From Acidobacteriota bacterium (GTDB taxonomy: Bacteria; Actinomycetota; AC-67), in NCBI GenBank assembly GCA_016208485.1, contig JACQXY010000061.1, positions 14,330-78,329 on the forward strand: a stretch of 64,000 bases of DNA. Direction: 5' to 3'. The position numbers were made by a program, and so were the translations under genes. The notes beneath the pieces were generated by a model. It did no database searches, was not told the DNA's origin, and saw only the letters and a list, made by a program, of their open reading frames with translations. Shown here in pieces: positions 7,492 through 36,284 of the stretch; within the stretch, counting starts at the first letter, position 1; the number at the start of each line of letters is the position of its first letter.

Positions 7492-7546
7492 GCGGGGCAG
7501 CCGACCGATGCTCCGGCGAAGTCGCCACAGCCTCCCCGGTCGGGGA

Positions 7547-9064: not shown

Positions 9065-9099
9065 CTCCTCCTCACCTTGACAGTTCGACGGTCGAGGCG

Positions 9100-9978: not shown

Positions 9979-9985
9979 GCGCCCG

Positions 9986-11774: not shown

Positions 11775-11776
11775 CG

Positions 11777-12523: not shown

Positions 12524-12539
12524 TGACGCGCTCCTCCTC

Positions 12540-13325
12540 TCAGCGGCCGACGAACGTGGGTTCCCGCTTCTCCGCGAATGCCTTGATTCCCTCCTTGCGG
12601 TCCTCGCTGATCACCAGATCATGATGGGACGTCGCTTCGAACTCCAGCCCCGCATCTAGATCCACCTCGGTCGCGAGGTTGACGGCTGCCTTGATCTTCG
12701 CGAGCGACAGCGGCGCGCGCTGCCCGATCACGCCCGCGAGCGCACGCGCTTCATCCATCAGCGCGGCGGCCGGGACGACGCGGTTGACGAGCCCGATCGC
12801 GAGGGCCTGCGCGGCGTCGATCCGCTCGCAGGTGAACATCATCTCTTTCGTTCGGGCGGGGCCGAGCAGGCGCGTCGCGCGCTGCGTCCCGCCGGCGCCG
12901 GGCATGCTCCCGACCTTCGCCTCGGGGAACCCGAACTGCGATCCGGCCGCGGCCACCCGCAGGTCGCACGCGAGCGCCATCTCGAGGCCACCGCCCAGGC
13001 AGTAGCCGCGAATCGCGGCGATGACCGGTGTGCCCATCTGCTCGAGACGGCGGAAGACACGTCGGACGCGTGCGCCGAGCGGATCCCCCGTCGAACCCTC
13101 CTGGTAGTCCTTGGCGCGACTCTTGAGGTCGGCGCCGACGCAGAACGCCCTCTCTCCCTGCGCACTGAGGATGAGCACACGCAGGCCCGCGGCCCCCTCG
13201 GCCCTATCGAGGATGCGGCTCATCTCGTCGAGCATCTCGACGCTCATCGCGTTCATAGCTTCGGGGCGGTTGAGCGTGATGAGCCCTACCGCGTCCTCGC
13301 GAGCCCATAGGATCGGTTCCTCCAT
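12540..13325 (-). CDS. enoyl-CoA hydratase/isomerase (crotonase superfamily)
   Basis: LITLNRPEAMNAM…FCVGADLK…GGGLEMALACDLRVAA… crotonase signature. Confidence 0.8.
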   Translation of the reverse strand: MEEPILWAREDAVGLITLNRPEAMNAMSVEMLDEMSRILDRAEGAAGLRVLILSAQGERAFCVGADLKSRAKDYQEGSTGDPLGARVRRVFRRLEQMGTPVIAAIRGYCLGGGLEMALACDLRVAAAGSQFGFPEAKVGSMPGAGGTQRATRLLGPARTKEMMFTCERIDAAQALAIGLVNRVVPAAALMDEARALAGVIGQRAPLSLAKIKAAVNLATEVDLDAGLEFEATSHHDLVISEDRKEGIKAFAEKREPTFVGR

Positions 13326-13335
13326 GGGGACCCCC

Positions 13336-14556: not shown

Positions 14557-14563
14557 CGCGCGC

Positions 14564-15832: not shown

Positions 15833-16164
15833 ACCTCTCGCCTCCCTTCGGCACTGTGTGGCTCGCCTCCGGATGCGCTTGAACTGGTCCCGCGCCCAAC
15901 CCCGCTCGCGCTCAGCCAGACTGTTGAAGCCAGACGTTACCAAGCCCCTAGGGTCAAGGCTACGCAGGATCGGACAATGTTCTGGCTCCCGCTTTGGCAG
16001 CTATTGACAACGGCGCCCTCCTCCGCTAGCCTGCCTAGGTCGTCTGGTTGCGTCCAGTGGTCGTTCCAGGGGCTGCCGTGGGTGTCGGTGGCCCCGTCGC
16101 CTGTGCCTCGGGCGCGTACCGAACACCCCGGAGCAATCCGACAACGCTGGCACGGTGTCCCGGG

Positions 16165-17784
16165 ATGAAACCCCACCAGGATGAGCTGACCCAAGAGCCG
16201 AGCGCGCGAGCGACGCTCGCACAACTGCTGGAGAACCTCGGCGAAGGCCTCGTTACGATCCTCGCCGCCCCCAAGGGTCTCGATGTGGAGGTCGTCGGAC
16301 CCGCCATCTTCGATCCGTTGGCCGGCTCCCCGGTCGAGCCCGGCGATCTGATCCTCGCCGTCGCCACCGATCTTTCGCGCGCCGGAGACATAGTGCTGGC
16401 GGCGGCCGACGCCGGCGCCGCCGGCGTCGCCTTCAAGCTGCCGGGCGACCCCCCGCCCGCACTCGCCGAGGCCGGCGCGCGCGCCGGGATTGCGATCCTC
16501 GCCGTGCCGCACGAGCTGTCGTGGGGACACTTCTTCTCCTTGCTGCGCACAGCGGTCGCAAGCACCGCGCAAGTGCCGACGCAAACCTCCGACGTCCCGG
16601 TTGGCGACTTGTTCGCGCTCGCCAACGCCGTTGCGGCGATGGTCGGCGGGCCGGTGACGATCGAGGATCCGAGCTTCCGCATCCTCGCCTATTCGAGCCT
16701 CGAAGAGCCGGTAGACGAGCTGCGGATGCAGACGATCCTCGGGCGCCGCTCCCCGGCAGCATGGATGAGTCGCTTCGGCGACGCCGGGTTCCTGCGTCGC
16801 GTCGCCACCACGGACGATGTCGTCACGGTCGCGGGCATCCCCGAGGAGGGCGTCCTACCGCGCATTGCGATCGCGGTGCGCGCCGGTGGGGAGATGCTCG
16901 GTTCGATCTGGGTGATCGTTCGTCAGGCTCCGGCGCCGCCCGCGTCGGCCGAGGCATTGCGCGAAGCTTCGCGCATCGCAGCGCTGCACCTGATGCGGCA
17001 TCGGGCGACCGCCGACATCGAGCGGCGGTTCCGCGGCGACCTGCTCCTATCGCTGATCGAGGGTCGCGGACCGATCGAGGCCGTCGCCACCAAGCTTGGC
17101 GTCGACGCGGATGGGGCGTTCACCGTCGTCGCGTTCGAGCTGCACTCCGCCGAGGAGCCGGAACTCTCCATCCAGCGGGAGCGGACCCTCGAGCTGATCG
17201 CCGTCTACTGCGAAGCGTTCCGTCGCCGCAGCGCGTGCGTCGCGAGCGGCAAGACCGTCTACTGTTTGCTGCCGACGGCCCCCCATACCGGCCGCCCACG
17301 ACTGATAGCGCTGGCCGCCGACATCATCCGCCGCGCGGAGCGTTCCCTAACAGTCGGGCTGCACGCCGGGATCGGCTCGACGGTCAGCCCCCTGCGAAAC
17401 GTGCCGCGCTCGCGCTGGGAGGCCGACCAGGTGGTGCGCGTCGTCACCCGGTCTCCAGAGCGCGGTCCGGTCGCGCACATCGAAGACGTTCGCGCGCACA
17501 CACTTCTCCTGGAGCTTCAGGATCTCGCGGCAGACCGGCCGCATTTCGCGGCGGGCAAGCTCGAACTGCTGCGCCGGGCGGACGCGCAGCAGGGCACCGA
17601 CTACCTGCGCACGTTGAGTGCATACTTCGAGCACCAGGGCAACGTGGCAAGAGCCGCTCAGGCACTCGGTATCCACGCGAACACGCTCCGCTACCGGTTG
17701 CGGCGCATGGTCGAGCTATCGGGTTTGGATCTCGACGACGCCGACGAGCGACTCATCGCCGACCTGCAGCTCCGCTTCCTGTAG
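16165..17784 (+). CDS. PucR-family transcriptional regulator (C-terminal PucR-type HTH)
   Basis: ATG at 16165 (MKPHQDELTQ…); C-terminal …LGIHANTLRYRLRRMVELSGLDLDDADERL… is the PucR_C HTH; divergent from the LeuA-like cluster. Confidence 0.75.
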   Translation: MKPHQDELTQEPSARATLAQLLENLGEGLVTILAAPKGLDVEVVGPAIFDPLAGSPVEPGDLILAVATDLSRAGDIVLAAADAGAAGVAFKLPGDPPPALAEAGARAGIAILAVPHELSWGHFFSLLRTAVASTAQVPTQTSDVPVGDLFALANAVAAMVGGPVTIEDPSFRILAYSSLEEPVDELRMQTILGRRSPAAWMSRFGDAGFLRRVATTDDVVTVAGIPEEGVLPRIAIAVRAGGEMLGSIWVIVRQAPAPPASAEALREASRIAALHLMRHRATADIERRFRGDLLLSLIEGRGPIEAVATKLGVDADGAFTVVAFELHSAEEPELSIQRERTLELIAVYCEAFRRRSACVASGKTVYCLLPTAPHTGRPRLIALAADIIRRAERSLTVGLHAGIGSTVSPLRNVPRSRWEADQVVRVVTRSPERGPVAHIEDVRAHTLLLELQDLAADRPHFAAGKLELLRRADAQQGTDYLRTLSAYFEHQGNVARAAQALGIHANTLRYRLRRMVELSGLDLDDADERLIADLQLRFL

Positions 17785-17856
17785 ACCCGCCGGTGAACCC
17801 GTCCGCGGTCGCACTGACACGACAGCTTCGGGACGGCGGGCTCTCCCGGCGATCGT

Positions 17857-19041
17857 TCATCCGCCCAGCCGCAGCGCGACCTCGTTCTCGAGCAGCAGGC
17901 CGCGGCGCGTCAGGGTGAGCCTCCCTCCGGCAACCCGCACGAGCCCGGCCTCGCGGAGCACCTCCGCGTCTGCCCGGAGATCGCGCCCGAGTCGCGCGCG
18001 CGCCTCGGCGAGATCGACCCCCTCGATCAGGCGGAGCCGGAGCTGGAGCCACTCCTCCGCGCGCGCCGCCGGGTCGAGGCGCTCCTCGCCGGCGCGCGCG
18101 GCGCGCGGATCCGCCGCGTAGGCGCGCGGGAGCTTGCGGTTCCAGAAGCGCACGCCGGCGATGTGCGAGTGCGCGCCGGCGCCGAGCCCCAGGTACTCGC
18201 CTTGGGTCCAGTAGACGAGGTTGTGGCGGCTCTCGCGTCCGGGCCGCGCCCAGTTCGAGATCTCGTAGTGCCGGTAGCCCGCGCCCTGGAGCACGTCGAG
18301 TGCCGCCTCGAGCTTCGAAGCCTGGTCCTCGTCGTCCGGGGCTGCCATCCGCCCGGTGGCGACGGCGTGGCCTAACGCCGTCGGCCGCTCGATCGTGAGC
18401 GCGTAGCAGCTCAGGTGCTCGGGCGCGAGCGCGAGCGCCTCGCCGAGCGACTCGCGCCAGGCGGCCGCGTCCTCCCCCGGCCCTCCGTAGATGAGGTCGA
18501 GGCTCACGTCGGCGAACCCGGCCTCGCGCGCCGCCCGGACCGCGCGCCGGACGTCCTCCGGCGAGTGTCGCCGGCCGAGCGCCGCGAGCACCGGCCGGGA
18601 GAACGACTGGGCCCCGACGGAGAGCCGGTTCGCCCCGGCCGCGCGGAGCGCCGCCAGGCCACCCGCGGTCACGGTCTCGGGGTTCGCCTCCACCGAGACC
18701 TCGGCTCCGGGGGCGAGGGGCAGGACCCCGCGAATTCGCGCGACGGCGCCGGCAAGGAGGCCCGGGTCCACCATCGTCGGGGTTCCCCCGCCGAGGTAGA
18801 GGGACCCGGCCGCCGGGAAAGGCCCGTGGCGCGCGGCCCACCATTCGGCCTCGCGCGCGAGCGCGTCGAGGTAGGCGCCCACCTCGGCAGCGGAGGCTCC
18901 GACGTGGACGTTGAAGTCGCAGTAGGGGCACTTGTAGGGGCAGAACGGGATGTGCACGTACACCCCGAACGCTGGCGCGAGGTCCGAGGCGACGCCCGTG
19001 GCCGGGTAGGCGGCAAACCCCGCCCCGAAGGGCGGGCTCAC
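17857..19041 (-). CDS. hemW: radical SAM heme chaperone HemW (coproporphyrinogen-III oxidase-like)
   Basis: VYVHIPFCPYKCPYCDFN radical-SAM CxxxCxxC motif, HemN_C-like C-terminus; start set at in-frame GTG with upstream GGAG; the longer ORF-track N-terminus is Arg-rich. Confidence 0.6.
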   Translation of the reverse strand: MSPPFGAGFAAYPATGVASDLAPAFGVYVHIPFCPYKCPYCDFNVHVGASAAEVGAYLDALAREAEWWAARHGPFPAAGSLYLGGGTPTMVDPGLLAGAVARIRGVLPLAPGAEVSVEANPETVTAGGLAALRAAGANRLSVGAQSFSRPVLAALGRRHSPEDVRRAVRAAREAGFADVSLDLIYGGPGEDAAAWRESLGEALALAPEHLSCYALTIERPTALGHAVATGRMAAPDDEDQASKLEAALDVLQGAGYRHYEISNWARPGRESRHNLVYWTQGEYLGLGAGAHSHIAGVRFWNRKLPRAYAADPRAARAGEERLDPAARAEEWLQLRLRLIEGVDLAEARARLGRDLRADAEVLREAGLVRVAGGRLTLTRRGLLLENEVALRLGG

Positions 19042-19154
19042 CGCGGCGCTCCGGTGCCCATCATCGGTCCCGAAGGGTAGCGCGGGAGCGAAGCAGGATT
19101 CCGGGGGGGCTCCGGCGAATCTTGAGCCAGGCCCAAGGAGATAGGGAGGACAGG

Positions 19155-22100
19155 ATGCGACTCTTTCGTGCGCTCGTCGGCGTGATCGTTCTCGTGCTCG
19201 GCGTCCCGGCGGCCGGGCCGGCAGATCCACCAGGGCAGGTGCTCGCGGGGGCTGCGGTGGTGGACTCCACCTGGCACGTCGGCGCGTCCTCGGGGCAATA
19301 CGCGGGCGACCCCGTCCTCGAGCCCGGATCGATCGGCCCCTACGACCCGCAGACCCCCGAGCGCGGGGTCGAGCCCCATCAGCACTCGCTCACGAGCCGG
19401 CCCTCATACGGGCTGCAAGGTCGCGAGTCGGTGCGGGCCCTGGTGATCCAGGGAAGCGACGGAAAGCGCGTCGGACTCGTATCCAACAACCTCTACATCC
19501 CGCAGGACCTGATCGATCGCCGGGTCGCCGGGCTGCTCGCAGAGCACGACGCGCTCGTGGACCTCGGCCTCGCCCCCGGGCCGAGAACCGGCATCACGGG
19601 ATCGAACCTCGTCGTGTCGGTGTCCCACAGCCACTCGTCCCCCTACTACTCCACGCCTTCGTGGGGACCCTGGACGTTCCAGGACGTCTTCGACATCCGC
19701 TTCTTCGAGTTCTACGCCGAGAGGATGGCCGAGGCGGTGATCCGCGCGTCGGCGAGCATGGTCCCCGCCAAGGTCGGAGGGAGTGTGTCGTACTTCGACC
19801 TGCTGCAGCGTCACTCCTTCGGCCCCGAGGTCGCCGACGACGGCACCCCCGCGGGATTCCCCGAGGCCGACTTCCCCGAGAATCGCTCGGTCGGAAAGAC
19901 CGAGAACGAGAAGGCGGTGTTCGTGATCGCGGTCGACGCGGCCGCCACGGGGGAGCCCCTCGCGACCTGGGTGGTGCTCGGCCTGCATCCCGAGATGCTT
20001 TCCGGCAACGACCTGCTCGCCTCCGAGTACGTGAACACGATGTTCCGCTTCGTGGACCGGGAGGTCGGCGGCGTGACGCTCTTCTCGCAGGAGGACACCG
20101 GAACCGCGGAGCCGGCAAAGGATGGCAAGTCTCAGCCCTCCGCGGTGCGGGCGGAGTACTCCCACCGCGAGTACGCGCAGGTGGAGCGCGCCGGTCGCCT
20201 GCTCGCCGATGCCGTCAAGAAGACGCGCGGCGACATCGAGAGCGGAACCCCGGAGGACTCCGAGCAGTTCTCCGCCATGTCGGGCGACTTCCCGGTGGGC
20301 GTGGCCGACCTGCGGCTCGCTCCGCCCAACCTGCGCCCCTCGCCGACCGTTTCCAACTGCCGCGCGGAGAAGGCCTTCGACGGCAACCCCGGTGTGCCGC
20401 TCGTCGGCCTGCCGGACTGCGTCTTCCCGGCCGAGGAGCTGGGCCTGCCCGGGCCACCGGTCAGCCCGCGCGTGGGCTACGGCGCGCTGCGCGAGGCCGG
20501 AGTCCCGGTCCCCGAGAACTACGGCTTCCCGAGCTTCGTCAGCCTCCAGGAATCCGATCAGGTGCACCTGCAGGCGATCCGGCTCGGGAACATCGCCGTC
20601 ACCACCTGCCCGTGCGAGCAGTGGGGGGACCAGGCCCGCAACATCCGGTCGCGCCTGAACAAGGTCCCCGGCGACCTCTGGGACGGCTTCGACTGGACCG
20701 AGCACGCGCGCGGCGAGGCGGCCGGCACGCCCTGGTGCCGCCAGAACTCCGACACCACGTGGACCTGCGCCGACCCGCGCGCCTGGGACTGGGACCTTTC
20801 CGGACCCGTGCCGCGCCAGGTGTGGGACCGCGACCTCCCGCCGGTATCCGACCTCGCCTACCGGCGGATGAAGGCGCAGATTCACAACGACGCCGCGGGT
20901 TGGGACGACCTCGCGAACCTCCAGGCCGAGACCGACCCCGTGGATCCCGCCAAGATCAAGGGGAACTTCACCCACGAGGAACTCACCGATTTCGCCTATG
21001 ACCTCGTGGTTCCGATCGGGATGACGAACGACTACTGGGGCTACATCGTCACCTACCGCGAGTGGGAGCGCGGCGACCACTACCGCAAGGCCCTCTCCGG
21101 TCTCGGGCCGCACTCGGCGGACTTCATGGCGACGCGGCTTTCCCGCATGGCCGCCAACCTGAACGGCGCCAACCTCTCCACCGTCAACCCGAAGGACGTC
21201 GTCTACGGCCCGGAGGACGGGCGCGAGTACGCGACCGCTCAGGCGATCGGCGAGGCCGCGCGCGCCTACATCCCCGCCTATGAGGCGACGCTTCCCGCCG
21301 ACGGCGGAGCGGCAGGGATCGAGCGGCAACCCGGCGACATCGCCCGCTTCGACGCGGCCTCCGTGCGGTGGACCGGCGGGGACCCCTACACCGACACGCC
21401 GAACGTGCGGGTCGAGCGTCTCGAGGACGGCGCCTGGGTGCCGTTCGCCGACGGCTCCGGCGAGGTGCAGTACCGGACCTGGTTCCCGCAGCCGGAGGAC
21501 CTGCCGGCGTGGCGCGCGGGGGAGTTTGCCTGGCACTGGGAAGCCACCTTCGAGGCGCTCGCCTCGGATCTCGAGCTGGTGGACGCGCGCGGCAGCGAGT
21601 ACCGTGCGACCCCCGAGGGGACGTACCGGTTTGTGATCGACGGGACGCGCCGGGGTCTCGCCGGAGCGACGAGCCCCTACCACCTCGAGTCGAACTCGTT
21701 CGACGTGTCGCCGTGGGACGGCATCACGGTCGAGGACATCCGAGTCGATCCCGGCGACGGGACGGTGTCCTTCGCGCTCGGGCCCGTCAACCACTACACC
21801 TACGGCACGCCGAACACCTACACGGTCGGCCCGATCGACTACCCCGATACGGCGACCGCGCTCGACATCTACCCGTTCATCAGCCCGCGCGACCAGTCCC
21901 GGAACCTCGGGCCGGGCGGTGAGCAGTTCTGCTTCGCGTGCAGCTTCCGCCCGTGGGCCGACACCGGGCGGGCGGTGTCGGCGATCGTGACGATCGAGCG
22001 CGCCGGCGGGGGGACCGACCTCGCCGAGGCGACGCTCGGGCCGGACGGCCGGTGGCACACGATCGCCACGCTCGGCGAAGGCGATCGGGCCTTTGTGGCT

Positions 22101-22163
22101 GCGGGGGGCGTCCTCGATGAGTTCGGACAGGTGAACGGGGCCGCGAGCGCGAGCGTCGGCTGA
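19155..22163 (+). CDS. large secreted hydrolase, neutral/alkaline ceramidase-like
   Basis: ATG 19155 with SD GGGAGGA; signal peptide MRLFRALVGVIVLVLGVPAAG; motifs SVSHSHSSP (cf. ceramidase HTHSGP), LSGNDLL, FSQEDTG in ceramidase-like order; ~1000 aa with long C-terminal extension. Confidence 0.5.
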   Translation: MRLFRALVGVIVLVLGVPAAGPADPPGQVLAGAAVVDSTWHVGASSGQYAGDPVLEPGSIGPYDPQTPERGVEPHQHSLTSRPSYGLQGRESVRALVIQGSDGKRVGLVSNNLYIPQDLIDRRVAGLLAEHDALVDLGLAPGPRTGITGSNLVVSVSHSHSSPYYSTPSWGPWTFQDVFDIRFFEFYAERMAEAVIRASASMVPAKVGGSVSYFDLLQRHSFGPEVADDGTPAGFPEADFPENRSVGKTENEKAVFVIAVDAAATGEPLATWVVLGLHPEMLSGNDLLASEYVNTMFRFVDREVGGVTLFSQEDTGTAEPAKDGKSQPSAVRAEYSHREYAQVERAGRLLADAVKKTRGDIESGTPEDSEQFSAMSGDFPVGVADLRLAPPNLRPSPTVSNCRAEKAFDGNPGVPLVGLPDCVFPAEELGLPGPPVSPRVGYGALREAGVPVPENYGFPSFVSLQESDQVHLQAIRLGNIAVTTCPCEQWGDQARNIRSRLNKVPGDLWDGFDWTEHARGEAAGTPWCRQNSDTTWTCADPRAWDWDLSGPVPRQVWDRDLPPVSDLAYRRMKAQIHNDAAGWDDLANLQAETDPVDPAKIKGNFTHEELTDFAYDLVVPIGMTNDYWGYIVTYREWERGDHYRKALSGLGPHSADFMATRLSRMAANLNGANLSTVNPKDVVYGPEDGREYATAQAIGEAARAYIPAYEATLPADGGAAGIERQPGDIARFDAASVRWTGGDPYTDTPNVRVERLEDGAWVPFADGSGEVQYRTWFPQPEDLPAWRAGEFAWHWEATFEALASDLELVDARGSEYRATPEGTYRFVIDGTRRGLAGATSPYHLESNSFDVSPWDGITVEDIRVDPGDGTVSFALGPVNHYTYGTPNTYTVGPIDYPDTATALDIYPFISPRDQSRNLGPGGEQFCFACSFRPWADTGRAVSAIVTIERAGGGTDLAEATLGPDGRWHTIATLGEGDRAFVAAGGVLDEFGQVNGAASASVG

Positions 22164-22253: not shown

Positions 22254-22376
22254 TCGAGAGGGGCGAGTGCGTGGGAGCGACGCGCTGCGGGCTCCCCGTC
22301 CTAGACTATGGCGGCCGGGGGCCGAGCCTCGGCGCGGCCTCGATGTGGGGGCTCCGACGATGAGGGGTTGCTCCGC

Positions 22377-23408
22377 ATGAAAGCGCTCGTCAAGGCGAAG
22401 GCAGAGCCCGGCCTGTGGATGGAGAACGTCCCGATGCCGGCGGTCGGCGGGGACGACGTCCTGATCCGCGTCCATCGCACGGGGATCTGCGGCACCGATC
22501 TCCACATCCACTCGTGGGACCCATGGGCACAGGCGAATGTCCCCGTGCCCCTCGTGATCGGGCACGAGTTCGTGGGCGAGATCGTCGACCGGGGCGTCCA
22601 CGTCACCGACCTGGAGCCCGGCGACCTCGTCAGCGGCGAGGGGCACCTGATCTGCGGCCGGTGCCGCAACTGCATGGCCGGCCGCCGCCACCTGTGCGCG
22701 CACACGAAAGGGATCGGGGTCAACCATCCGGGCGCGTTCGCCGAGTACATCGCCCTGCCGGCCTCGAACGTCTGGCGGCACCCGCAGGGCATCGACCTCG
22801 ACGTCGCGGCGATCTTCGACCCCTTCGGCAACGCGGTCCACGCCACGCTCACCTTCCCGGTGCTCGGCGAGGACGTGCTCGTCACCGGGGCGGGCCCGAT
22901 CGGGCTGATGGCGGCGCTCGTCGCGCGGCACGCCGGCGCGCGGTACGTCGTGGTCACCGACGTGAACGGCTACCGTGTAGACCTCGCCCGCCGCCTGGGC
23001 GTGACGCTCGCGCTCAACATCACCGAGGCGAAGATCGCCGACGCGCAGCGCGAACTCGGGATGCGGGAGGGGTTCGACGTCGGCCTGGAGATGTCGGGAG
23101 AGCCCGCGGCCCTCAGGGACATGATCGCGAACATGGCCCACGGTGGGAAGATCGCGATGCTCGGCATCCCGACGAGCGAGTTCGGGATCGACTGGACCCG
23201 CCTGGTGTTCAACATGAACACGATCAAGGGCATCTACGGGCGCGAGATGTTCGAGACCTGGTACTGGATGAGCGTGCTCGTGGAGTCCGGCCTGGACATC
23301 TCCCCGGTGATCACGCACCGGTTCGAGGCCGCCGACTTCGAGCAGGCGTTCGCGACGACCCGGGAGGGCCGCTGCGGCAAGGTGCTCATCCGCTGGACGG
23401 ATCGCTGA
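22377..23408 (+). CDS. tdh: L-threonine 3-dehydrogenase
   Basis: [21 protein letters not shown]…GHEFVGEIV…[19 protein letters not shown] zinc-ADH motifs identical in pattern to Tdh. Confidence 0.85.
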
Positions 23409-23421
23409 GGAGGCGCGCCGG

Positions 23422-24600
23422 GTGCTGGGACCGCTGAAGGAGGAGATCGAACGTCGCCTCGCCGAGATCCGCGCGGCGGGGCTCGACAAGGTCGAGCGCG
23501 TGCTCACCTCGCCACAGGACGGTCGGGTCCGGGTGTCCGGCGGCAAGGAGGTGCTGAACCTCTGCGCGAACAACTACCTCGGGCTCGCCGACCACCCGGC
23601 CGTGATCGCCGCCGCGAAGGAGGCCCTCGACCGGTGGGGCTACGGGATGGCGTCGGTGCGCTTCATCTGCGGGACCTCCCAGATTCACAAGGACCTCGAG
23701 GCGCGGCTCTCGGAGTTCCTCGGGACCGAGGACACGATCCTCTACTCCTCGTGCTTCGACGCGAACGGGGGGCTGTTCGAGACCCTGCTCGGCGAGCGCG
23801 ACGCCGTCATCTCCGACGAGCTGAACCACGCCTCGATCATCGACGGCATCCGTCTATCGAAGGCCCGGCGCCTGCGCTACCGCAATCGCGATACGGAGGA
23901 CCTCGCGGAGCAGCTTCGGGCGTGTGCCGATGCGGACAACCGGTTGATCGCGACCGACGGAGTCTTCTCGATGGACGGGCACGTCGCGCCGCTCGATCGA
24001 ATCTGCGAACTCGCCGAGCGCCACTCCGCGCTCGTCATGATGGACGACTCCCACGCGGTCGGGGTGATGGGGGCGACGGGGCGCGGAAGCCACGAGGCGC
24101 GCGGAGTCATGGGGCGGGTGGACATCATCACCGGGACGCTCGGCAAGGCGCTCGGCGGGGCGAGCGGGGGATATGCGAGCGGCCGGCGCGAGATCATCGA
24201 CCTGTTGCGCCAGCGGAGCCGCCCGTACCTGTTCTCCAATTCAGTGGCGCCTGCCATCGTGGCGGCCTCGCTCACGGTCCTAGACCTGATCGAGGCAAGC
24301 GACGACCTGCGCGCGCGCCTCGCCGAGAACACGACCTGGTTCCGCAGCGGGATGACCGAGATGGGCTTCGACATCGTCCCCGGCGAGCACCCTATCGTGC
24401 CGATCATGATCGGGGACGCGGCCGAGGCCTCGCGAATGGCCGATGCCCTCCTCGGCGAGGGGGTCTACGTCATCGGGTTCAGCTACCCGGTGGTGCCGCT
24501 CGGCAAGGCCCGGATCCGCGCGCAGATGTCGGCGGCGCACTCGCGCGCCGATCTCGAGCAGGCGGTCGGCGCGTTCGAGCGCGTGCGCGCGCGCGGCTGA
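23422..24600 (+). CDS. kbl: glycine C-acetyltransferase (2-amino-3-ketobutyrate CoA ligase)
   Basis: GTG start; PLP-dependent AOS family, …LCANNYLGL…SFSMDG…; immediately downstream of tdh (tdh-kbl operon). Confidence 0.85.
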
Positions 24601-24603
24601 GGA

Positions 24604-25031
24604 TCAGGGGCTTTCCCGCAGGACTCGCTCGACCCCGTCGGTGATCGCTGCGCCGAGAGTTCGCAGACGCTGCCTCTCCGTGCGCGAGAGGTCGAGATCC
24701 CCCAGATACGTGAAGACATCACGGACCGCGGCCACCACCTCCAGGCCCGGCGCCTCGGACGCGCGCAGGACCTCCCCGATGTGACGGGGCGACACGTCAC
24801 GGGCGAGCAGGCCCCAGATCTCCACCCGGTCCTTCTCGCCGGGCTGGCTATCGGAGGCAACATCTCGGGGCCGACGATTACGTCGATGTCGTGGCTCTGA
24901 AGACCACCGGTCCTGGCCCAGCTCGCCCACCCTCCGATCAGGATGGCGCCGGGGAATTCGGCGAGGAACCGATCGAGCACCCGACGGCTGAGGTCGGTGT
25001 ACTCCTTCGGGTAGAACTCCTCAGGCGACAC
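24604..25031 (-). pseudogene. frameshifted nucleotidyltransferase-like gene (minimal NTase, motif GG…SHDIDVIV)
   Basis: Two minus-strand ORFs in different frames (25031→~24900: MSPEEFYPKEYTDL…IGGWASWARTGG…HDIDVIVGPEM; then ~24880→24604: …VEIWGLLARDVSPRHIGEVLRA…) read as one protein only if a frameshift is allowed. Confidence 0.35.
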
Positions 25032-25380
25032 CGGCGTCGAGCATCCCGACCGTGAGCGCCGACACGAACCGCGCAGCGGCCCATCCCGGAACGTTGCAGA
25101 GGTCGACGAACGCCTGCGCGAGCGGCGTCACGGCGCCGTAGCGGCGGAGCAGAGGATCGGGATCGAGCACCATGATCGTCGTGTCGCCCGGCACGGCCTC
25201 CTGGAGAGGCGCCGGCAGATCCTCGGGGCTGCCGTAGCAGAGCACGCGGTCGTAGCCGGAGATGAAGTTGCCCCTCTGATACGCGACGACCGGCACCGGC
25301 GTCGTCCGGCCGGTGGTCGTCTCGTCCCCCACCTGCCACGAGATTCCAGGAATCTGATGCAAAGTACCGTATTGGATCAA
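25021..25380 (-). CDS. hypothetical protein (119 aa), overlaps start of NTase-like gene by 11 nt
   Basis: Non-Arg-rich ORF MIQYGTLHQIPGISWQVGDETTTG…; no recognisable domain. Confidence 0.3.
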   Translation of the reverse strand: MIQYGTLHQIPGISWQVGDETTTGRTTPVPVVAYQRGNFISGYDRVLCYGSPEDLPAPLQEAVPGDTTIMVLDPDPLLRRYGAVTPLAQAFVDLCNVPGWAAARFVSALTVGMLDAGVA

Positions 25381-25422
25381 TGCATGACGCCGGGCCGCGT
25401 TCCAGCCCCCCCGGGGGGGCGG

Positions 25423-25644
25423 TCACAGCAGGTTCAGAAGCTCGTCGGCGCTCAGACGTGCCTGGCGCATGACGGAGCGCAGGACCTGCGGGTTGAGGTC
25501 GCCCGGGTGCATTGGGATCGTGACGAGCAAGTTCCCGCGCTTCAGCTGCAGATGGCTTCCTCGCTGGCGAACCGACCGAAAGCCCGCCCTCTCGAGAGCC
25601 CCCACGAGTTCGCGCGGTTTGAGCGAGGGGAGCCGGCGGGACAC
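25423..25644 (-). CDS. hicA: type II toxin HicA (mRNA interferase, YcfA family)
   Basis: 73 aa, …KPRELVGALERAGFRSVRQRGSHLQLKRGNLLVTIPMHPGDLNPQVLRSVMRQARL matches HicA consensus (GSHxxxxxP…IP.H). Confidence 0.8.
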   Translation of the reverse strand: MSRRLPSLKPRELVGALERAGFRSVRQRGSHLQLKRGNLLVTIPMHPGDLNPQVLRSVMRQARLSADELLNLL

Positions 25645-25650
25645 GGGCGC

Positions 25651-25923
25651 CTACGCGTGGGCACGGATGTCCACGTCCACGGTGAAGCGGAACACCTCCG
25701 CCACGCCTTCGGGAGATGCCTCACGCGGATCGTCGGCACGGGGCACAGGACGCAAGTATGGAAGGCCATCCTCGAAGCAACCTTCCATGTGCAGGGTCGC
25801 GGCCTCAAGGAGCATCATCTTCGCTTGTTCGATCGTCGTCCCCTCGGAGGCTACATCCAGCTCCGGGCAGAGAGCCGTGTAACCTCCGGCCTCTTCGACG
25901 ACAACCCCCGTAAAGACGAACAT
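25651..25923 (-). CDS. hicB: antitoxin HicB (UPF0150 family)
   Basis: 90 aa from internal ATG MFVFTGVVVEEAGGYTALCPELDVASEGTTIEQAKMMLLEAATLHMEG…; 6-nt gap to hicA; -10-like TATACT upstream. Confidence 0.7.
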   Translation of the reverse strand: MFVFTGVVVEEAGGYTALCPELDVASEGTTIEQAKMMLLEAATLHMEGCFEDGLPYLRPVPRADDPREASPEGVAEVFRFTVDVDIRAHA

Positions 25924-26025
25924 GCACGGCTCCTGGAATCGGCCTGATCGCAGTATAGCGCCGCCGTCAGGCCGGTCTCCCCGAATCTCCGCTGGATCGG
26001 GCATGCCAGGCTGACCTGGAGACCG

Positions 26026-27843
<1,818 letters not shown>

Positions 27844-27926
27844 GCGGGCCAGGATACCGCGCGCCGGGCACCCCGGTTCGGGGCGGCTCGCCCTCCCCCA
27901 CCGGCCCTGGTACAATCCGCCCTCCG

Positions 27927-28199
27927 ATGGCGAACATCAAGTCCCAGATCAAGAGGAACCGGCAGAACGAGGCCCTGCGCCAGCGCAACCTGGCGGTGCG
28001 CTCCGAACTGCGGACCTTCGCCCGGCGCTTCCGCGAGGCGCTCGCCTCCGGCGACCGCGCGAAGGCGGAGGCGGCGCTCCAGCGCGCCTGCCGTGCCTAC
28101 GACCGCGCCGCGGCAAAGGGCGTCGTTCACAAGAGCAACGCCGCCAACCACAAGTCCCGGCTCTCCAAGGCCTTCAACAGCGCCGGCTCCGCGGCCTGA
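27927..28199 (+). CDS. rpsT: 30S ribosomal protein S20
   Basis: [31 protein letters not shown]… canonical S20. Confidence 0.9.
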
Positions 28200-28261
28200 C
28201 GGCGCGCCGGCCTCATCGAACTCGAGCATCAACTGCCCAGCGCCCCCGGAAACTCGTTCCG

Positions 28262-28609
28262 CTAGCGATTCCGCAGGAAGGCCCAGATCCCTAGGCCGAC
28301 GCACGTCACCGAGCCGGCGCCCACAAGGAGCATGGGCAGGGTCTTGAGGTCGTTGAACATCATGACCGTCAGGGCCACGTACACGAGCGGTAGCACGAGA
28401 CCCGCCAGAATCAACTCGAGAGCGGCCATCCGGTTCGCGGATCGCCGGCGCGCCGCCCTCTGTTCCTCGCTGCGATGCACGGTCGGAAGCCGAAAGACCT
28501 GCAACCAGGCGACGTGCGGCCGCGCGCGCGCGAGCCACGCCAGTGCGAACACGATCGCGAGGACACCAAGCAGAATCGCGCCTGCGCTGTGGGGAAAGAG
28601 CGCGTCCAT
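28262..28609 (-). CDS. small integral membrane protein (3 predicted TM helices), unknown function
   Basis: Internal ATG MDALFPHSAGAILLGVLAIVFALAWLA…; hydrophobic stretches; upstream part of ORF-track ORF is Arg-rich. Confidence 0.45.
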   Translation of the reverse strand: MDALFPHSAGAILLGVLAIVFALAWLARARPHVAWLQVFRLPTVHRSEEQRAARRRSANRMAALELILAGLVLPLVYVALTVMMFNDLKTLPMLLVGAGSVTCVGLGIWAFLRNR

Positions 28610-28617
28610 CGTCTGCC

Positions 28618-28947
28618 TCACCGAGTCGGCGCACCGCGTTGTGCCGGCGGCCGGTCGCTGACCATGAGAAGCGCCGCACCGTCCGGAGTAGTGATCGGCC
28701 CCATTCGCCGAAACCCTGCCTTCTCGTAGCAACGGATGGCGCGGACGTTGGAGGGAGCGGGATCGGTCTGGATCTTGGTCACGGCCGGGTCCGTAGACAG
28801 GGGTCTCGCTCGTCCGGCCACCAGGCGCCGCCTGACAGAGCCGGGACGTAGGAATGTATGTAGCCGACCAGAACAAGGAGGTCGACCGAGCCATTCCGCC
28901 AGCCGAGGAAGGTCGCCCTCGGTGAGTCGCTGGAAGGTGATCGTCAT
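28618..28947 (-). pseudogene. remnant of an aminoglycoside-6'-N-acetyltransferase-family GNAT gene (internal deletion/frame disruption)
   Basis: N-terminus MTITFQRLTEGDLPRLAEWL and C-terminus VTKIQTDPAPSNVRAIRCYEKAGFRRMGPITTPDGAALLMV match the ends of AAC(6')-Ib-type GNATs; the ~100-aa middle is replaced by a short Arg-rich segment; total only 109 aa. Confidence 0.45.
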
Positions 28948-29208
28948 GTGGCACGCGCCTCACCGTTCGAGGACGCGGTTATCGCGGCCTGTTCACGCGC
29001 TGACTCCGGAGGGCCCGGGTTCAGGCGCGCCGGCACCGCCCGCTGATCCCGCACCAGCACCACATCGCGCTCCGACGCACGGCCAAGCGTTTCTTGCGGC
29101 CCGAAGACTCGGCGTTGTCGGCGCAGATGCTCTCCCGGCCGAGCCGATTACGGAGGTGGTCCGCGAACGTCTGCTGCGCCAGCCGGTCCTCGCTGTTGAT
29201 GTCGGTGA

Positions 29209-30078
29209 TCATTGCTGGCCACCGAGCCCATCTGTTACGCCGCGGACGATCCTGAACGCGCGATCCAGATCGAACTGGTCGAACTCGCGGGCTCGCAGAA
29301 CCGGCCGCAGGTGGGCGTCGAGCTGCGGCCGCAGCTGATCCAAGCGCTCGGGCGAGACGTCGAGGGCACCGGCGCCATCGACCGCGAGCTTGCTTCGCAC
29401 GAGCCGCAGGAATTCCGGATCGGCGACATCGAGCCCCGCGACGAGCACAGCGTGGTCGATGTCGAAGAAGTCGCGGATCGCTGCCTCCTGCCGCGAGAGG
29501 GCGGCGCGGAGCTTCTCAGCCATCGCCTCAGGGTAGGACAGACACCGCGCTGGAAAGGTCTCGATGAGGGCGCCGCCTCGCGCCCAGTGGAGAACCGCCG
29601 TGTGCACCCGCCCCTGCTCGGGTGCGGTCAGGGTCGGTTCGCGCAGGCCGATTTCGATGGCGATCGTCTCGGTTCTTGGAGCCAGGAGCGAGCGATAGCC
29701 GAGGGTCGCGTTGTACTGGGTCGATGCGTTGTGACCTTGGAGAGGAACCAGCAGCTCGAACCCGATGTTCTGTAGCCGACCGACGACCGCCTTGACCGGA
29801 GTGACGGTGCGACTGCGAACACCCCGTGTCGAGTCCGGCGCTGTCGGAATGCTGAAGTCGAGATCCTCGCTCAGCCGGAAGAAACCCGAGTGGACTTTGG
29901 CCAGGCAGGTGCCCCCCTTGAAGACCAGCGGGACATCGGCGGCCGCAAGCGCCTCGAGGATCACGCTGCAGAAGTAATCCTTCTCGATCAGGCGTGGGGC
30001 GAATCCCGTCTCCTCGCTGGTGAACCGGATCGCCTCCCGCAGGTCCTCCGGCGCATCTTCGTGCCAGCGGATCGGCAT
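29209..30078 (-). CDS. abiEii: type IV TA toxin AbiEii/AbiGii-family nucleotidyltransferase (DUF1814)
   Basis: Internal ATG MPIRWHED…; motif LIEKDYFCSVILEALA…VFKGGTCLAK…RLSEDLDFS characteristic of AbiEii; starts 2 nt after abiEi stop. Confidence 0.8.
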   Translation of the reverse strand: MPIRWHEDAPEDLREAIRFTSEETGFAPRLIEKDYFCSVILEALAAADVPLVFKGGTCLAKVHSGFFRLSEDLDFSIPTAPDSTRGVRSRTVTPVKAVVGRLQNIGFELLVPLQGHNASTQYNATLGYRSLLAPRTETIAIEIGLREPTLTAPEQGRVHTAVLHWARGGALIETFPARCLSYPEAMAEKLRAALSRQEAAIRDFFDIDHAVLVAGLDVADPEFLRLVRSKLAVDGAGALDVSPERLDQLRPQLDAHLRPVLRAREFDQFDLDRAFRIVRGVTDGLGGQQ

Positions 30079-30080
30079 GC

Positions 30081-30884
30081 TCAGGCCTCGCCGTTCCATA
30101 CCACGCCCCAGCGGCGCTCGACGGGGCCACGCTTGACGCGGCGCGGAATCCAGGGGATCGGGCTGCTTGTCGGCGGAACCGCTCGATCGAGTTTGCGCAG
30201 CAACGCCTCGGCGATGCCTTCGCGCTCGAGCAGTGCCCCGATCCGGCGGATCGTTCCCTTGTCGCCGTAACACAGCGTGAGTTCGACGAGGTCGGCCGCC
30301 TTGACTCGCTTCGCTTCCAACTCGCTCCGAATCCAGCGGTATGCCCGCGGGAGGCTCTCGAAACGGGACCAATCGTAGACAGCGTCGACCAGCGTCCGCG
30401 CGCGCGAGGAATAGATCGCCGCTGGGCCGCCCGCCACACCCGCAGCCTCCTCGGTCGCCCCAAGACGGGCGTCCGCGACCTTGATGAGGGTCAGTTGGAC
30501 CGAGCCAATGCTCCGCACGCCGGAGAGTCGGTTGTTGTACGCGCAGACGCGGTTCGGCATCTGCTCGTCGAAACCATACCGATTGAACGCGTTGAGGCCG
30601 CAGATCTGGTAGCGCCCGTCACGCGCAGCCATCAGCGTCGCCATGGCGAGGCCGTCGTCGGGGCTCCACTTGCCGCCCAAAGGCAGGCGTGGCGGCACGA
30701 GATAGAGTCCGCGCCAGACGCGCGCGATCATCCCGGCGCGCGCTAGGCGACTCAAGAGCTTGCGCTCCTGATCCACGCCGAGGCGCATCGGTTTGCGTAG
30801 ATCGCCGGTGCGCACAGTGGTCCAGCCGCGCATCTGCGCGTACGCCAGGAACTCCGCCTCCAGCCGGCCCATGCCCCGATTCAT
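30081..30884 (-). CDS. abiEi: type IV TA antitoxin / transcriptional regulator AbiEi family
   Basis: 267 aa, …RLARAGMIARVWRGLYLV… AbiEi_4 signature; immediately upstream of abiEii. Confidence 0.7.
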   Translation of the reverse strand: MNRGMGRLEAEFLAYAQMRGWTTVRTGDLRKPMRLGVDQERKLLSRLARAGMIARVWRGLYLVPPRLPLGGKWSPDDGLAMATLMAARDGRYQICGLNAFNRYGFDEQMPNRVCAYNNRLSGVRSIGSVQLTLIKVADARLGATEEAAGVAGGPAAIYSSRARTLVDAVYDWSRFESLPRAYRWIRSELEAKRVKAADLVELTLCYGDKGTIRRIGALLEREGIAEALLRKLDRAVPPTSSPIPWIPRRVKRGPVERRWGVVWNGEA

Positions 30885-30925
30885 GGCCGTACTCTATTAT
30901 TGGGATAATCCCCTGTCAAAGGATT
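30885..30925 (-). promoter_or_regulatory. abiEi promoter: -35 TTGACA, 17-nt spacer, -10 TAGAGT, near-leaderless; contains palindrome GGGATaATCCC
   Basis: Reverse-complement reading of 30891-30919 gives TTGACA-N17-TAGAGT ending 6 nt before the ATG at 30884; AT-rich in a GC-rich context. Confidence 0.4.
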
Positions 30926-31165
30926 TACCGAAGCCTACGAGACGACCCCTCTACACCGCGATCTCCCCGCTCATCAGGCGCGGCAACGACAGGTTGCGGG
31001 CGGCGCGGAGCCGCGCATTCTGGAGTCGAAGGGCGTGAGCCTGAGAAAGTCTTCGGATAGACGGTCTCCTGGGTGCTCTGCGTATCGATTCCCCGCGCTC
31101 CCTCCTTCAGCGCGCGTGTTGTGCCGACCGGCGGATCTGAATGACATGGCCCCCGCGCGCTCGAG

Positions 31166-32191
31166 CTATCGCCGTCCCGCGCTCGGCGCGGCTTCGCCGG
31201 CGATCTCGGCGACGAGCATCTCAAGGACCAGCTCCGGCGGCTCGCCCTCCCCGCGCTCCCCGCCCTTGAGCGCGAGATCGGCGTCGGCGAGGAGGCGGAA
31301 CGCGCGGCGGATGTCCTCCGGCCCGAACGCGCGCGCCTGGCGGAACGCGCGCTTCACGGCGCCCTCCTTCACCTCCAGCTCCTTGGCGATCACCGCCGCC
31401 GGGCGCCGCTCGGAGTCGCGCACGAGCGCCACGGTGCGGAGTTGGCGCGCGAGCGCGGCGACCAGGCCGATCGGGTTCTCCCCCTGGCCGAGCAACGCGC
31501 CGAGGTGCCGGAGCGCAGCGGGGCGATCGCGACCGAGGACCGCATCCACGAACGTCCACGCCTGCGACTCGAGCCCCCGGAAGAGCCGCGTGACGGCCGC
31601 GATGTCGATGGCGCCGTCGGTCGAGGAGAGGAGCTGCTCGGCGGCCGACGCCAGCTCGCGAAGGTCGGTCCCGACCGCGTCCACGAGGGCCTGGGCGGCC
31701 TCCGGCGACACTCGACGGCCGGCCGCGCGCAGCCGCGCCGCGACCCAGCGCGGGACCTCCCAGGGCGGAGGAGCCTCGACCTCGATCACATCGGCGACCG
31801 CGCCGAGCGACTTCTTCAGGCGCGCCCCGCGCGCCGCGACGAGCGCGAGCCGTACGCCGGCCGGGGCGTCCGCCGCCCAGCGAGAGATCATCTCGAGCGC
31901 CGGGGCCTTGAGATCGTCCGCATCCGGAACGACGACGAGACGCCCGCCCCCGAAGAGCGAGGGAGTGTCGAGCCCGTAGGCGATCGCGGCGGGGTCGGAG
32001 GCGGGGAGCACCTCGGTCGCGAAGTCGTGCCGCTCGAGCTCCGCCCGCAGGTCCGCGAGAGCGGTCGAGGCGAGGAACTCGTCGCCCGACACGACGAGGG
32101 TCACCGGCGCGGCGCGGCGCGGCGCGGCGCTGCGCGGCGGCGCCCGGTGGCGCGCGGGCGGGTCGGCCGGGGGGCTGGTGCGAGGCATCAC
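31166..32191 (-). CDS. holA: DNA polymerase III subunit delta
   Basis: DNA_pol3_delta family (…LVVVPDADDLK…); N-terminus uncertain (possible GTG start at 32104; the first ~29 aa of the ORF are Pro/Arg-rich). Confidence 0.7.
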   Translation of the reverse strand: MMPRTSPPADPPARHRAPPRSAAPRRAAPVTLVVSGDEFLASTALADLRAELERHDFATEVLPASDPAAIAYGLDTPSLFGGGRLVVVPDADDLKAPALEMISRWAADAPAGVRLALVAARGARLKKSLGAVADVIEVEAPPPWEVPRWVAARLRAAGRRVSPEAAQALVDAVGTDLRELASAAEQLLSSTDGAIDIAAVTRLFRGLESQAWTFVDAVLGRDRPAALRHLGALLGQGENPIGLVAALARQLRTVALVRDSERRPAAVIAKELEVKEGAVKRAFRQARAFGPEDIRRAFRLLADADLALKGGERGEGEPPELVLEMLVAEIAGEAAPSAGRR

Positions 32192-35324: not shown

Positions 35325-36284
35325 TCAGCTCGGCCCGCGCGCGCCCCGGTGCCGGCGCGTCGAGGCGTGGGCCTCGTCTCCGTGCGCCTCCCAGGGATCG
35401 AGGTGAACGTCCACCTGGGCGACGCCGGGCAGCTCGTGCAAGATCCGGTGGTGGACGGTCTCCGCCACCTCGTGCGCTCGCGCGAGCGGCAGGCGCCCGT
35501 CGACCGCCACCGTCAAGGTGACGTAGAGCGAGCGGCCCGCCCAGCGGGCCTGGCAGCGCCCGACCGAGGCGACGCTCGGAGTGCCTCCCGCCACAAGGCG
35601 GATGCGCTCGACGATCTCCGGGTCGACCGCGTCGAGCAGTCGAGCCAGGACCTGGCGGCCGGCGCCCCAGGCGATCGACCCGATCGCGAGCGTGATCACG
35701 AACCCGGCGATCGGGTCGGCGGCGCGAAACCCGAACCGCGCGCCCAGCAAACCGAGGAACGCCGCGACCGAGGCGAGCGCGTCGGTGCGCGCGTGCTGAC
35801 CGTCGGCCACGAGCGGCTCGCTCCCGATGCGGCGCCCGACCCGGATCTTGTACCGCGCGACCACCTCGTTGCCGATCCCTCCCACGAGCGCCGCGGCCAT
35901 CGCCCAGCCGACGAACGCGACCTCGTGCCCTCCGGTGAGCTTGCGGTAGGACTCGAGGGCGGCGTAGCCCGCGCTCGTCCAGATCACGAGCACCACGCCC
36001 ACTCCGGCGAGGTCCTCCAGGCGCTGGTAGCCGAACGTGTAGCGGTGATCCGCGGCCCGGCGCGCGGCCGTGAACGCCACCGCAAGGATCACCGTCGTGA
36101 CGATGTCCCCGATGTTGTCGAGGAGATCTGCAAGCAGGGCGGCGCTCCCGGAGATCGCCACGACGACGGCCTGGAAGACGGCCGTGAGCACGAGCGCAAC
36201 CGCGGAGATCCGGATCGCGCGCAGACCCTCGCGCGTGCCCTCCGGTCCGGCAACGGCAGCGACCCTGTGCGAATCGCCCGACAT
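35325..36284 (-). CDS. cation diffusion facilitator (CDF) family metal efflux transporter
   Basis: Cation_efflux TM domain plus C-terminal ZT_dimer; His-rich tail (HLDPWEAHGDEAH). Confidence 0.8.
   Translation of the reverse strand: MSGDSHRVAAVAGPEGTREGLRAIRISAVALVLTAVFQAVVVAISGSAALLADLLDNIGDIVTTVILAVAFTAARRAADHRYTFGYQRLEDLAGVGVVLVIWTSAGYAALESYRKLTGGHEVAFVGWAMAAALVGGIGNEVVARYKIRVGRRIGSEPLVADGQHARTDALASVAAFLGLLGARFGFRAADPIAGFVITLAIGSIAWGAGRQVLARLLDAVDPEIVERIRLVAGGTPSVASVGRCQARWAGRSLYVTLTVAVDGRLPLARAHEVAETVHHRILHELPGVAQVDVHLDPWEAHGDEAHASTRRHRGARGPS

Follow-up and report, generated by a model that had tools for sequence, protein, structure and literature searches.

Toxin-antitoxin pairs among decayed genes at two enlarged junctions near lepA in an uncultured actinobacterium

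Introduction

In relatives of the bacterium described here the genes holA, rpsT, lepA and hemW follow one another closely. What has come to lie between them in this genome, and what has since become of it? We examined the lepA region of a 64,000-nucleotide stretch (the window) of contig JACQXY010000061.1, assembly GCA_016208485.1, positions 14,330 to 78,329 of the forward strand. A first-pass annotation of the same DNA had described an accessory islet with three toxin-antitoxin (TA) like modules and two gene remnants, interrupting a conserved block of kbl, lepA, rpsT and holA-comEC-comEA. Our answer, which we hold with good though not complete confidence, is that two junctions of a conserved actinobacterial backbone each gathered horizontally acquired DNA that has mostly decayed since. 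The right junction (holA-rpsT) would have received a fragment of a restriction-modification (R-M) operon carrying an AbiE pair between hsdS and hsdR, with an AAC(6') pseudogene and a membrane open reading frame (ORF) beside it; the left junction (lepA-hemW) would hold hicB-hicA as an intact pair, the remains of a winged-helix gene and of a nucleotidyltransferase (NTase) gene of predicted MenT1 fold, and a tdh-kbl block of native composition.

Results

Two junctions are enlarged beside lepA

The backbone genes of the region are as follows.

17857-19230, minus strand: hemW-like radical-SAM gene (Pfam Radical_SAM and HemN_C), the ancestral downstream neighbour of lepA.
26026-27915, minus strand: lepA, core gene and anchor for the related loci.
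27927-28199, plus strand: rpsT, core gene (Pfam Ribosomal_S20p on an identical protein).
31166-32191, minus strand: holA, core gene (Pfam DNA_pol3_delta_C on a near-identical protein).
32199 onward, minus strand: comEC, comEA, a CDF (cation-efflux) transporter gene and leuS, assigned by synteny.

LepA was used as the anchor for fetching 160 related loci by scans of genome and metagenome contig collections, and the window proteins were mapped onto these by tblastn. All 160 loci were from Actinomycetota. The best LepA relatives were 70% identical among genome contigs and 77% among metagenome contigs, hence the synteny comparison is at family or order distance; no LepA relative more than 77% identical was present in the collections searched, and exact-protein look-ups returned the same organism alone. 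The recurrent order in the relatives was leuS-comEA-comEC-holA, followed by rpsT in the opposite orientation and next by lepA and hemW. The holA-rpsT gap had a median of 164 bp across 107 relatives and was 2,967 bp in the window, in agreement with the earlier proposal that accessory TA and abortive infection (Abi) genes break a normally tight holA-rpsT-lepA cluster. Among the closest relatives (LepA at least 70% identical; 13 loci), rpsT stood beside holA, as had been expected, at a distance of 35-312 bp in nine of the ten with data and of 891 bp in the remaining one. The lepA-hemW spacing was -51 to 182 bp in all ten with data and 6,796 bp in the window, where rpsT and lepA are only 12 bp apart. 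The islet genes were absent within 10 kb of lepA in all of the ~160 related loci.

The inclusion of kbl in the conserved block was mistaken. When all window genes were searched by tblastn against the related loci, it was hemW that directly followed lepA, which rules kbl out as a conserved lepA neighbour; for tdh, kbl and a gene for a 1013-aa protein, none of the 160 relatives had a homologue within 10 kb of lepA, and in the window these genes fall inside the same expanded 6.8-kb lepA-hemW gap as the TA genes.

The holA-rpsT junction: an AbiE pair between hsdS and hsdR remnants

To judge from its sequence, what the right patch preserves of a type I R-M operon spans 2.05 kb and is made up of an hsdS tail, a promoter, abiEi-abiEii and an hsdR head. 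The features, in the direction of transcription, are these.

30954-31049, minus strand: hsdS 3' remnant, last 32 codons, with 72% identity to the corresponding C-terminal residues of the HsdS of locus L168.
30891-30919, minus strand: promoter-like site TTGACA-17-TAGAGT, whose spacer contains the palindrome GGGATTATCCC, a candidate AbiEi operator.
30081-30884, minus strand: abiEi antitoxin/repressor gene, intact (PADLOC AbiEi, 2.5e-18).
29209-30078, minus strand: abiEii nucleotidyltransferase toxin gene, intact (Pfam and PADLOC).
28986-29212, minus strand: hsdR 5' remnant, first ~76 codons (the "short ORF" at 29021-29212), with a frameshift near 29100.

The AbiEii product matched Pfam PF08843 at 90.7 bits (cut-off 22.5) and the PADLOC model at 1.5e-29. 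Motifs I-IV have been defined as hG[G/S]x15DhD with an Arg in motif II, KLxAaxxR for motif III and +DxxD for motif IV, and mutating any of the four abolishes the toxicity of Streptococcus agalactiae AbiEii (PMC3985639). All are present here (F-K-G55-G56, x15 including R68, D72-L-D74; K189LRAALSR196; R202DFFD206), and the motif residues were invariant in a 25-sequence alignment, D72 and D74 excepted (at least 90%). The abiEi gene lies directly upstream, with 2 nt between its stop codon and the abiEii ATG; the PADLOC match to its product covers residues 8-264, the Pfam AbiEi_4 match was slightly below cut-off (23.5 bits, cut-off 25), and the protein is 88% identical to the AbiEi of locus L167. 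Just upstream of abiEi is TTGACA-17-TAGAGT, the sole sigma-70-like site in 24000-31500; its hexamers and the ATTATC core of the spacer palindrome were unchanged in five loci. We infer that the AbiE pair is likely to be functional and autoregulated.

On both sides of the pair are the R-M remnants. The hsdS tail lies in seemingly intergenic DNA upstream of abiEi, beyond the end coordinate that the islet had been given. The ATG of the hsdR remnant overlaps the abiEii stop codon (ATGA, 29209-29212); the remnant starts MITDINSEDRL exactly like L167-type HsdR, and past the frame change near 29100 it reads TLGRASERDVVLVRD...LNP...SAREQA. Identity to the L167 HsdR was 64% over the first 44 residues and 47% over the first 76, with replacements at conserved positions (e.g., LGWES to LGRES). 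When the joined peptide was searched by tblastn against plasmids it matched only proteins annotated "type I restriction endonuclease subunit R"; it had no Pfam or NCBIfam match and its identity came from tblastn alone. A complete type I R-M system is not present at this site: hsdM gave no match, and all that is left of hsdS and hsdR is the last 32 codons of the former and the frameshifted first ~76 codons of the latter.

The R-M origin is drawn from relatives in which the operon is whole. By blastn, window positions 31032-28987 aligned with L167 in one piece of 2,054 bp (85.4% identity), and homology ended on both sides of it; by segment, identity came to 89% for abiEi, 85% for abiEii and 83% for the promoter, with 77% for both the hsdS tail and the hsdR head. 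Loci L167 and L168, whose AbiEii is 82% identical to that of the window, have the intact order hsdM-hsdS-abiEi-abiEii-hsdR, and relatives of the AbiE pair in such intact operons showed 82-88% amino acid identity. Against the L167 copy, the ratio of nonsynonymous to synonymous substitution rates (dN/dS) was 0.20 for abiEi and 0.26 for abiEii, and dN in the hsdS and hsdR stubs was 2-3 times that of the abiE genes, as measured over 32-39 codons per stub only.

Other copies of the abiE cassette were found in the following contexts.

L163, 6963-8884: keeps a 71-residue hsdS tail.
L175, 60-1843: keeps ~38 nt of the hsdS tail.
L164, 7131-8867: bare cassette in unrelated surroundings.
L174, 1345-3076: bare cassette in unrelated surroundings.
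L176, 7133-8863: bare cassette in unrelated surroundings.

The bare cassettes measure 1.73-1.83 kb, and across six contexts homology began no more than ~100 bp from the hsdS stop and ended no more than ~20 bp from the hsdR start, which hints that a discrete ~1.75-kb abiE unit may move in and out of the hsdS-hsdR junction. These boundaries, and the compactness of a unit that sometimes travels with 38-70 nt of an hsdS tail, also speak for a different history, in which the right patch was imported by illegitimate recombination as a ready-made ~2-kb fragment (hsdS tail-abiE-hsdR head) and the full R-M operon was never resident. We regard this as possible, though somewhat doubtful. The frameshift and the conserved-position changes in hsdR, and flanks at 77% compared with abiE at 85-89%, are as in decay after loss of function; the same flank decay could equally have followed import of the fragment.

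The lepA-hemW junction: HicAB and the ruin of a second pair

The left patch, read in the direction of transcription from lepA, contains the following.

25651-25923, minus strand: hicB antitoxin gene, 90 aa, with a HicB fold by predicted structure.
25423-25644, minus strand: hicA toxin gene, intact (Pfam HicA_toxin).
25021-25290 (ORF runs to 25380), minus strand: 3' remnant of a winged-helix partner gene; residues 113-201 of ~201 kept, residues 1-112 lost.
24604-25031, minus strand: nucleotidyltransferase pseudogene of predicted MenT1 fold; residues 1-62 and 140-220 of ~229 kept.

HicA matched Pfam PF07927 at 55.5 bits (cut-off 27; E 6e-15) over profile positions 2-57 of 58; a G-S-H motif was read directly at residues 29-31, and PDB sequence matches were 1whz and HicA 6g26/4c26. 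HicB gave weak sequence-profile matches below cut-off (Pfam E 0.0085). Its AlphaFold2 (AF2) model had a predicted local distance difference test score (pLDDT) of 93, and the top nine Foldseek PDB matches were all HicB structures, with template modelling (TM) scores of 0.64-0.71; the best was 6g1c (E 5e-4, TM 0.68-0.71). Homologues, 544 in number, are of similar length (94-122 aa), so the window copy is full length for its subfamily, and an independent gene call also gave 90 aa. The protein has no C-terminal ribbon-helix-helix (RHH) or helix-turn-helix (HTH) DNA-binding domain: its 90 residues align just to the N-terminal ~86 residues of HicB structures of 135-140 aa. On the model, the short HicB is the N-terminal toxin-neutralising domain only. 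Because its start lies 21-100 nt past the lepA stop, read-through from lepA may account for transcription of hicB. The hicA stop is immediately followed, at 25395-25422, by a palindrome with perfect C7/G7 arms, CCCCCCCGGGGGGG, at the place where similarity with the truncated winged-helix gene runs out; it may represent a terminator, or it may be a deletion endpoint.

The second pair is decayed in both of its genes. Full-length homologues aligned by tblastn showed that the NTase pseudogene has lost ~77 codons (residues 63-139, with several invariant residues) and changes frame near 24852. The winged-helix remnant was 69% identical by tblastn over residues 113-201, and its homologues of 201-203 aa align to the C-terminal 75% of the ORF only; full-length members have a weak GntR HTH match at the N-terminus. 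Full-length pairs were found in three unrelated contexts (L169:6001-7288, L171:6001-7261, L173:786-2073) with the same 11-nt gene overlap as in the window. Such occurrence is as expected of a mobile TA pair, and full-length copies were common in metagenomes of Actinomycetota, Acidimicrobiales and Dormibacteria. The pair in the window is dead.

More than 500 proteins of ~220-245 aa make up the NTase family; all are named "hypothetical", and none is covered by a Pfam, NCBIfam or PADLOC model. The AF2 model of a full-length member (pLDDT 93) found MenT1 (8an5/8an4) as its best PDB folds, with E 2e-5 to 4e-5 and TM 0.45-0.57. AbiEii profiles matched one member only (Pfam 0.027; PADLOC 0.015), and comparison of the family with DUF1814 by profile was not significant (hhalign against the AbiEii alignment, E 0.58); since the family also had no PDB sequence match, its assignment as plain AbiEii was rejected. 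The modelled fold and the operon architecture of the pair resemble those of a MenAT or AbiE module; membership in DUF1814 is not established. Whether the winged-helix protein (~201 aa) and the MenT1-like NTase (~220-245 aa) make up an undescribed TA family, a new MenAT/AbiE-class branch of tRNA-targeting NTase toxins, is to our minds evenly balanced. If they do, the window shows the expected order of decay, with the toxin core lost first and the antitoxin truncated later.

An AAC(6') pseudogene and a membrane ORF in the right patch

Between rpsT and the hsdR remnant lie two further elements.

28618-28947, minus strand: acetyltransferase pseudogene of the AAC(6')-Ib/AacA4 family (the GNAT remnant; NCBIfam AAC_6p_set_A), with two internal deletions and frame changes.
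28262-28609, minus strand: three-helix membrane ORF of 115 aa, called in two independent assemblies, with a G+C fraction at third codon positions (GC3) of 0.84.

The GNAT remnant matched AAC_6p_set_A at E 3e-24 (85 bits) and, with its frames joined, at 9e-29 (100 bits); the cut-off is 280. The N-terminal 24 and C-terminal ~62 codons share a frame and the middle piece, LVGYIHSYVPALSGGAWWPDERDP, is in another. With a score so far below cut-off and ~110 of ~184 codons left in two frames, the copy is non-functional. The missing stretches include the one that carries the acetyl-CoA-binding loop in GNAT enzymes. A tblastn search with the remnant found aac(6')-Ib matches in 3,642 plasmids, and it may be recorded that this pseudogene was met in an environmental actinobacterial metagenome-assembled genome (MAG). 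The membrane ORF had no match to a family in the profile libraries searched, and none in plasmids.

The elements that had been listed for the islet (hicB-hicA, abiEi-abiEii, a broken NTase gene with a partner ORF, a membrane ORF, a GNAT remnant and a frameshifted short ORF) thus all proved real by profiles, structure or tblastn. Two of the three proposed TA-like modules are intact (HicAB and AbiE) and the third, the winged-helix-NTase pair, is a ruin. Remnants do exist and number five rather than two: winged helix, NTase, AAC(6'), hsdR 5' and hsdS 3'. The damage to the NTase gene, which had been called a simple frameshift, is instead the internal deletion of ~77 codons. Linkage of the accessory genes by 4-nt ATGA overlaps holds at one of five junctions, that of abiEii with the short ORF; the others have a 2-nt spacer (abiEi/abiEii), a 6-nt spacer (hicB/hicA), an 8-nt spacer (GNAT/membrane) and an 11-nt overlap (winged-helix and NTase remnants).

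Composition points to a foreign origin of the TA and defence elements

At ~70% G+C the window yields raw ORF lists crowded with spurious frames, so real genes were chosen by GC3. Values of 0.91-0.95 were obtained for the core genes and the cation-efflux gene, and also for three genes of the left gap (0.91-0.94):

19122-22163, plus strand: gene for a 1013-aa secreted protein (no Pfam match).
22308-23408, plus strand: tdh (Pfam ADH_N/ADH_zinc_N).
23422-24600, plus strand: kbl (Pfam Aminotran_1_2).

Every TA, defence or remnant element of both patches had a GC3 of 0.73-0.88. Relatives of AbiEii reach 86% amino acid identity, yet the best match of the slowly evolving LepA is 77%; because of this and the low GC3, the TA and defence elements are read as horizontally acquired. 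The tdh-kbl block may be older, or it may be a rearrangement.

The islet genes might instead be long-standing core content peculiar to the clade, a view to which the want of close relatives in the comparison and the native composition of the block of tdh, kbl and the 1013-aa gene lend something. Five pseudogenes, a lowered GC3 throughout the TA and defence elements, an abiE segment 85% identical in nucleotides to loci in unrelated contexts, and the absence of the islet genes from ~160 relatives make it improbable. The GC3 deficit, this absence and the mapped frame changes and deletions uphold the earlier proposal of acquisition and decay in this genome.

Three observations stand apart. The 1013-aa protein has an apparent signal peptide and no Pfam match at E 1e-5; its gene precedes tdh-kbl, with which it shares a strand, and diverges from hemW. 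The CDF transporter gene (35325-36284) lies between leuS and comEA, which are adjacent in the closest relatives, and forms a third interruption of the backbone, of core-like composition. Genes in window positions 1-19000 have GC3 values of 0.80-0.88, below the 0.91-0.95 of the lepA/holA/leuS region, which suggests that the large region left of hemW has a different history.

Probable separate insertions rather than one mobile element

We examined if the DNA from 24.6 to 31 kb could be one mobile element (an island, an integrative element or a prophage remnant) that arrived by a single insertion, as the clustering of TA and defence genes and the lower composition across both patches might lead one to think. 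There was no integrase or transposase among the window ORFs, and no att-like direct or inverted repeat flanking the patches beyond GC-rich chance matches. No tRNA gene lies beside the patches; an Rfam scan of 17-40 kb found a single tRNA, at 38955, ~8 kb away. On these grounds the single element was rejected. Core lepA and rpsT, of core composition, stand between the two patches, and relatives of the modules occur apart from one another, in contexts that are unrelated. One insertion event is therefore very unlikely; because there is no integrase, att site or nearby tRNA, and core genes part the patches, separate insertions followed by deletions fit best.

The source is a MAG, and identical NCBI proteins (locus tags HY775_...) bear the label "Acidobacteria bacterium" despite the actinobacterial core genes; the LepA relatives and the synteny are actinobacterial, and the label is probably wrong. 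An assembly or binning artefact could be suspected for these reasons. Logan assemblies of runs SRR12113402 and SRR12113406, which belong to one accession series, reproduced both sets of junctions at 100% identity: lepA-rpsT-membrane ORF-aac remnant-hsdR remnant-abiE-holA-comEC in L081 and L082, and lepA-hicB-hicA-remnant in L177. The arrangement is accordingly not an artefact of assembly, an explanation to which we give next to no weight.

Finally, the earlier reading of the region as a hotspot of TA/Abi acquisition and decay was examined against other Actinomycetota loci, in which enlarged junctions (>1 kb) were found at holA-rpsT in 20%, at rpsT-lepA in 33% and at lepA-hemW in 46%. From such junctions 343 ORFs, a set that includes spurious high-GC ORFs, were grouped into 189 clusters, and 149 representatives were scanned with Pfam. 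These contained 98 Pfam families, among the matches listed mostly transport and metabolism, and PADLOC gave few defence-like proteins among the matches listed. Given such diverse, mostly non-defence cargo, a TA-specific hotspot across lineages was rejected; acquisition and decay stand for this genome, and the junctions are generally permissive.

Discussion

We propose that the two junctions filled separately and that their contents then eroded around two TA pairs. By analogy with studied systems, AbiEi would repress the abiE promoter and neutralise AbiEii, and AbiEii, a DUF1814 nucleotidyltransferase, would block translation once antitoxin control is lost, e.g., on phage infection. Homologous MenT toxins add nucleotides to tRNA 3' ends and AbiEii might act by the same route; HicA would be an RNase restrained by the short HicB. 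Deletion of a TA pair would be costly to the cell, and it is proposed that the pairs outlast their neighbours, and are found intact amid wreckage, because of this cost.

Several points weigh against this account or limit it. The contrast in substitution between the abiE genes and the R-M stubs rests on 32-39 codons per remnant, too few to decide. In-situ decay of a whole R-M operon is indistinguishable from import of a ready-made 2-kb fragment, and the bare abiE cassette, without R-M flanks, was found in four of seven other contexts. The nearest LepA relative is at 77%; the time and order of insertion are not fixed, and conservation of the islet within the genus is compatible with the data. 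Given the native composition of tdh-kbl and the 1013-aa gene, rearrangement rather than acquisition may account for this part of the left gap. Lastly, HicB lacks the DNA-binding domain through which the pair would be autoregulated.

The locus offers an example, dated by decay, of a TA pair that persists while its carrier defence operon erodes; AbiE, apparently under purifying selection between hsdS and hsdR stubs, fits the idea of "addictive" modules that outlive their hosts. It also cautions annotators that a short ORF beside a TA pair may be what is left of an R-M gene, and the unannotated winged-helix and MenT1-fold NTase family, a candidate for a new role in TA or defence, is a practical lead. 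For the rest, the locus is commonplace accessory material at a variable junction of an actinobacterial chromosome.

Comparison with known systems

Everything intact in the two patches belongs to known families (AbiE and HicAB), and the embedding of such pairs between hsdS and hsdR is itself already known.

AbiE of Streptococcus agalactiae and Lactococcus lactis shares with the window the bicistronic abiEi-abiEii arrangement, the DUF1814 toxin motifs I-IV and a two-domain antitoxin whose first domain is a winged helix. The window copy is distant in sequence (profile matches only) and is flanked by hsdS and hsdR relics, and its promoter has a palindrome, a candidate, where the autoregulatory operator would be expected. 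In the known systems AbiEi acts as repressor and neutralises the toxin, and AbiEii, an NTase, brings translation to a halt (PMC3985639, PMC7450476, 10.64898/2026.01.19.700257); the class has been placed in type IV TA and lately proposed as type VII (PMC3985639; bioRxiv 10.64898/2026.01.19.700257).

Described cases of a TA or defence module lodged between hsdS and hsdR are DarTG2 in the RRDM island of enteropathogenic Escherichia coli (EPEC) (PMC12255303), TgvAB in VPI-2 of Vibrio cholerae (PMC11411939) and PrrC (per 10.1101/2024.01.29.577857). They occupy the same hsdM-hsdS-[pair]-hsdR position as the AbiE relatives in L167 and L168; the window lacks the host R-M operon, and the embedded guest alone survives.

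Compared with HicAB of Burkholderia pseudomallei and HicA3B3 of Yersinia pestis (6g26, 4p78), the window pair has the HicA domain, the HicB N-terminal fold (TM 0.65-0.71) and adjacent genes; it differs in the order hicB then hicA and in a HicB of 90 aa that lacks the C-terminal DNA-binding domain.

The AAC(6') pseudogene fits the AAC(6')-Ib/AacA4 family profile in its N-terminal, middle and C-terminal segments, closely so over the C-terminal ~60 residues, whereas its 100 bits are far under the 280-bit cut-off.

The winged-helix-NTase family shares with MenAT1 (Rv0078A/B) and the MenT/DUF1814 toxins of Mycobacterium tuberculosis (PMC10435456, PMC7450476) a MenT1 fold, as modelled, and a two-gene operon with an overlap; the motif GG...S-H-D-I-D is kept, with later acidic and basic motifs as in the MenT/DUF1814 toxins. 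Its partner is a winged-helix protein of ~201 aa, unlike the small MenA1, and the window copy is a pair of pseudogenes.

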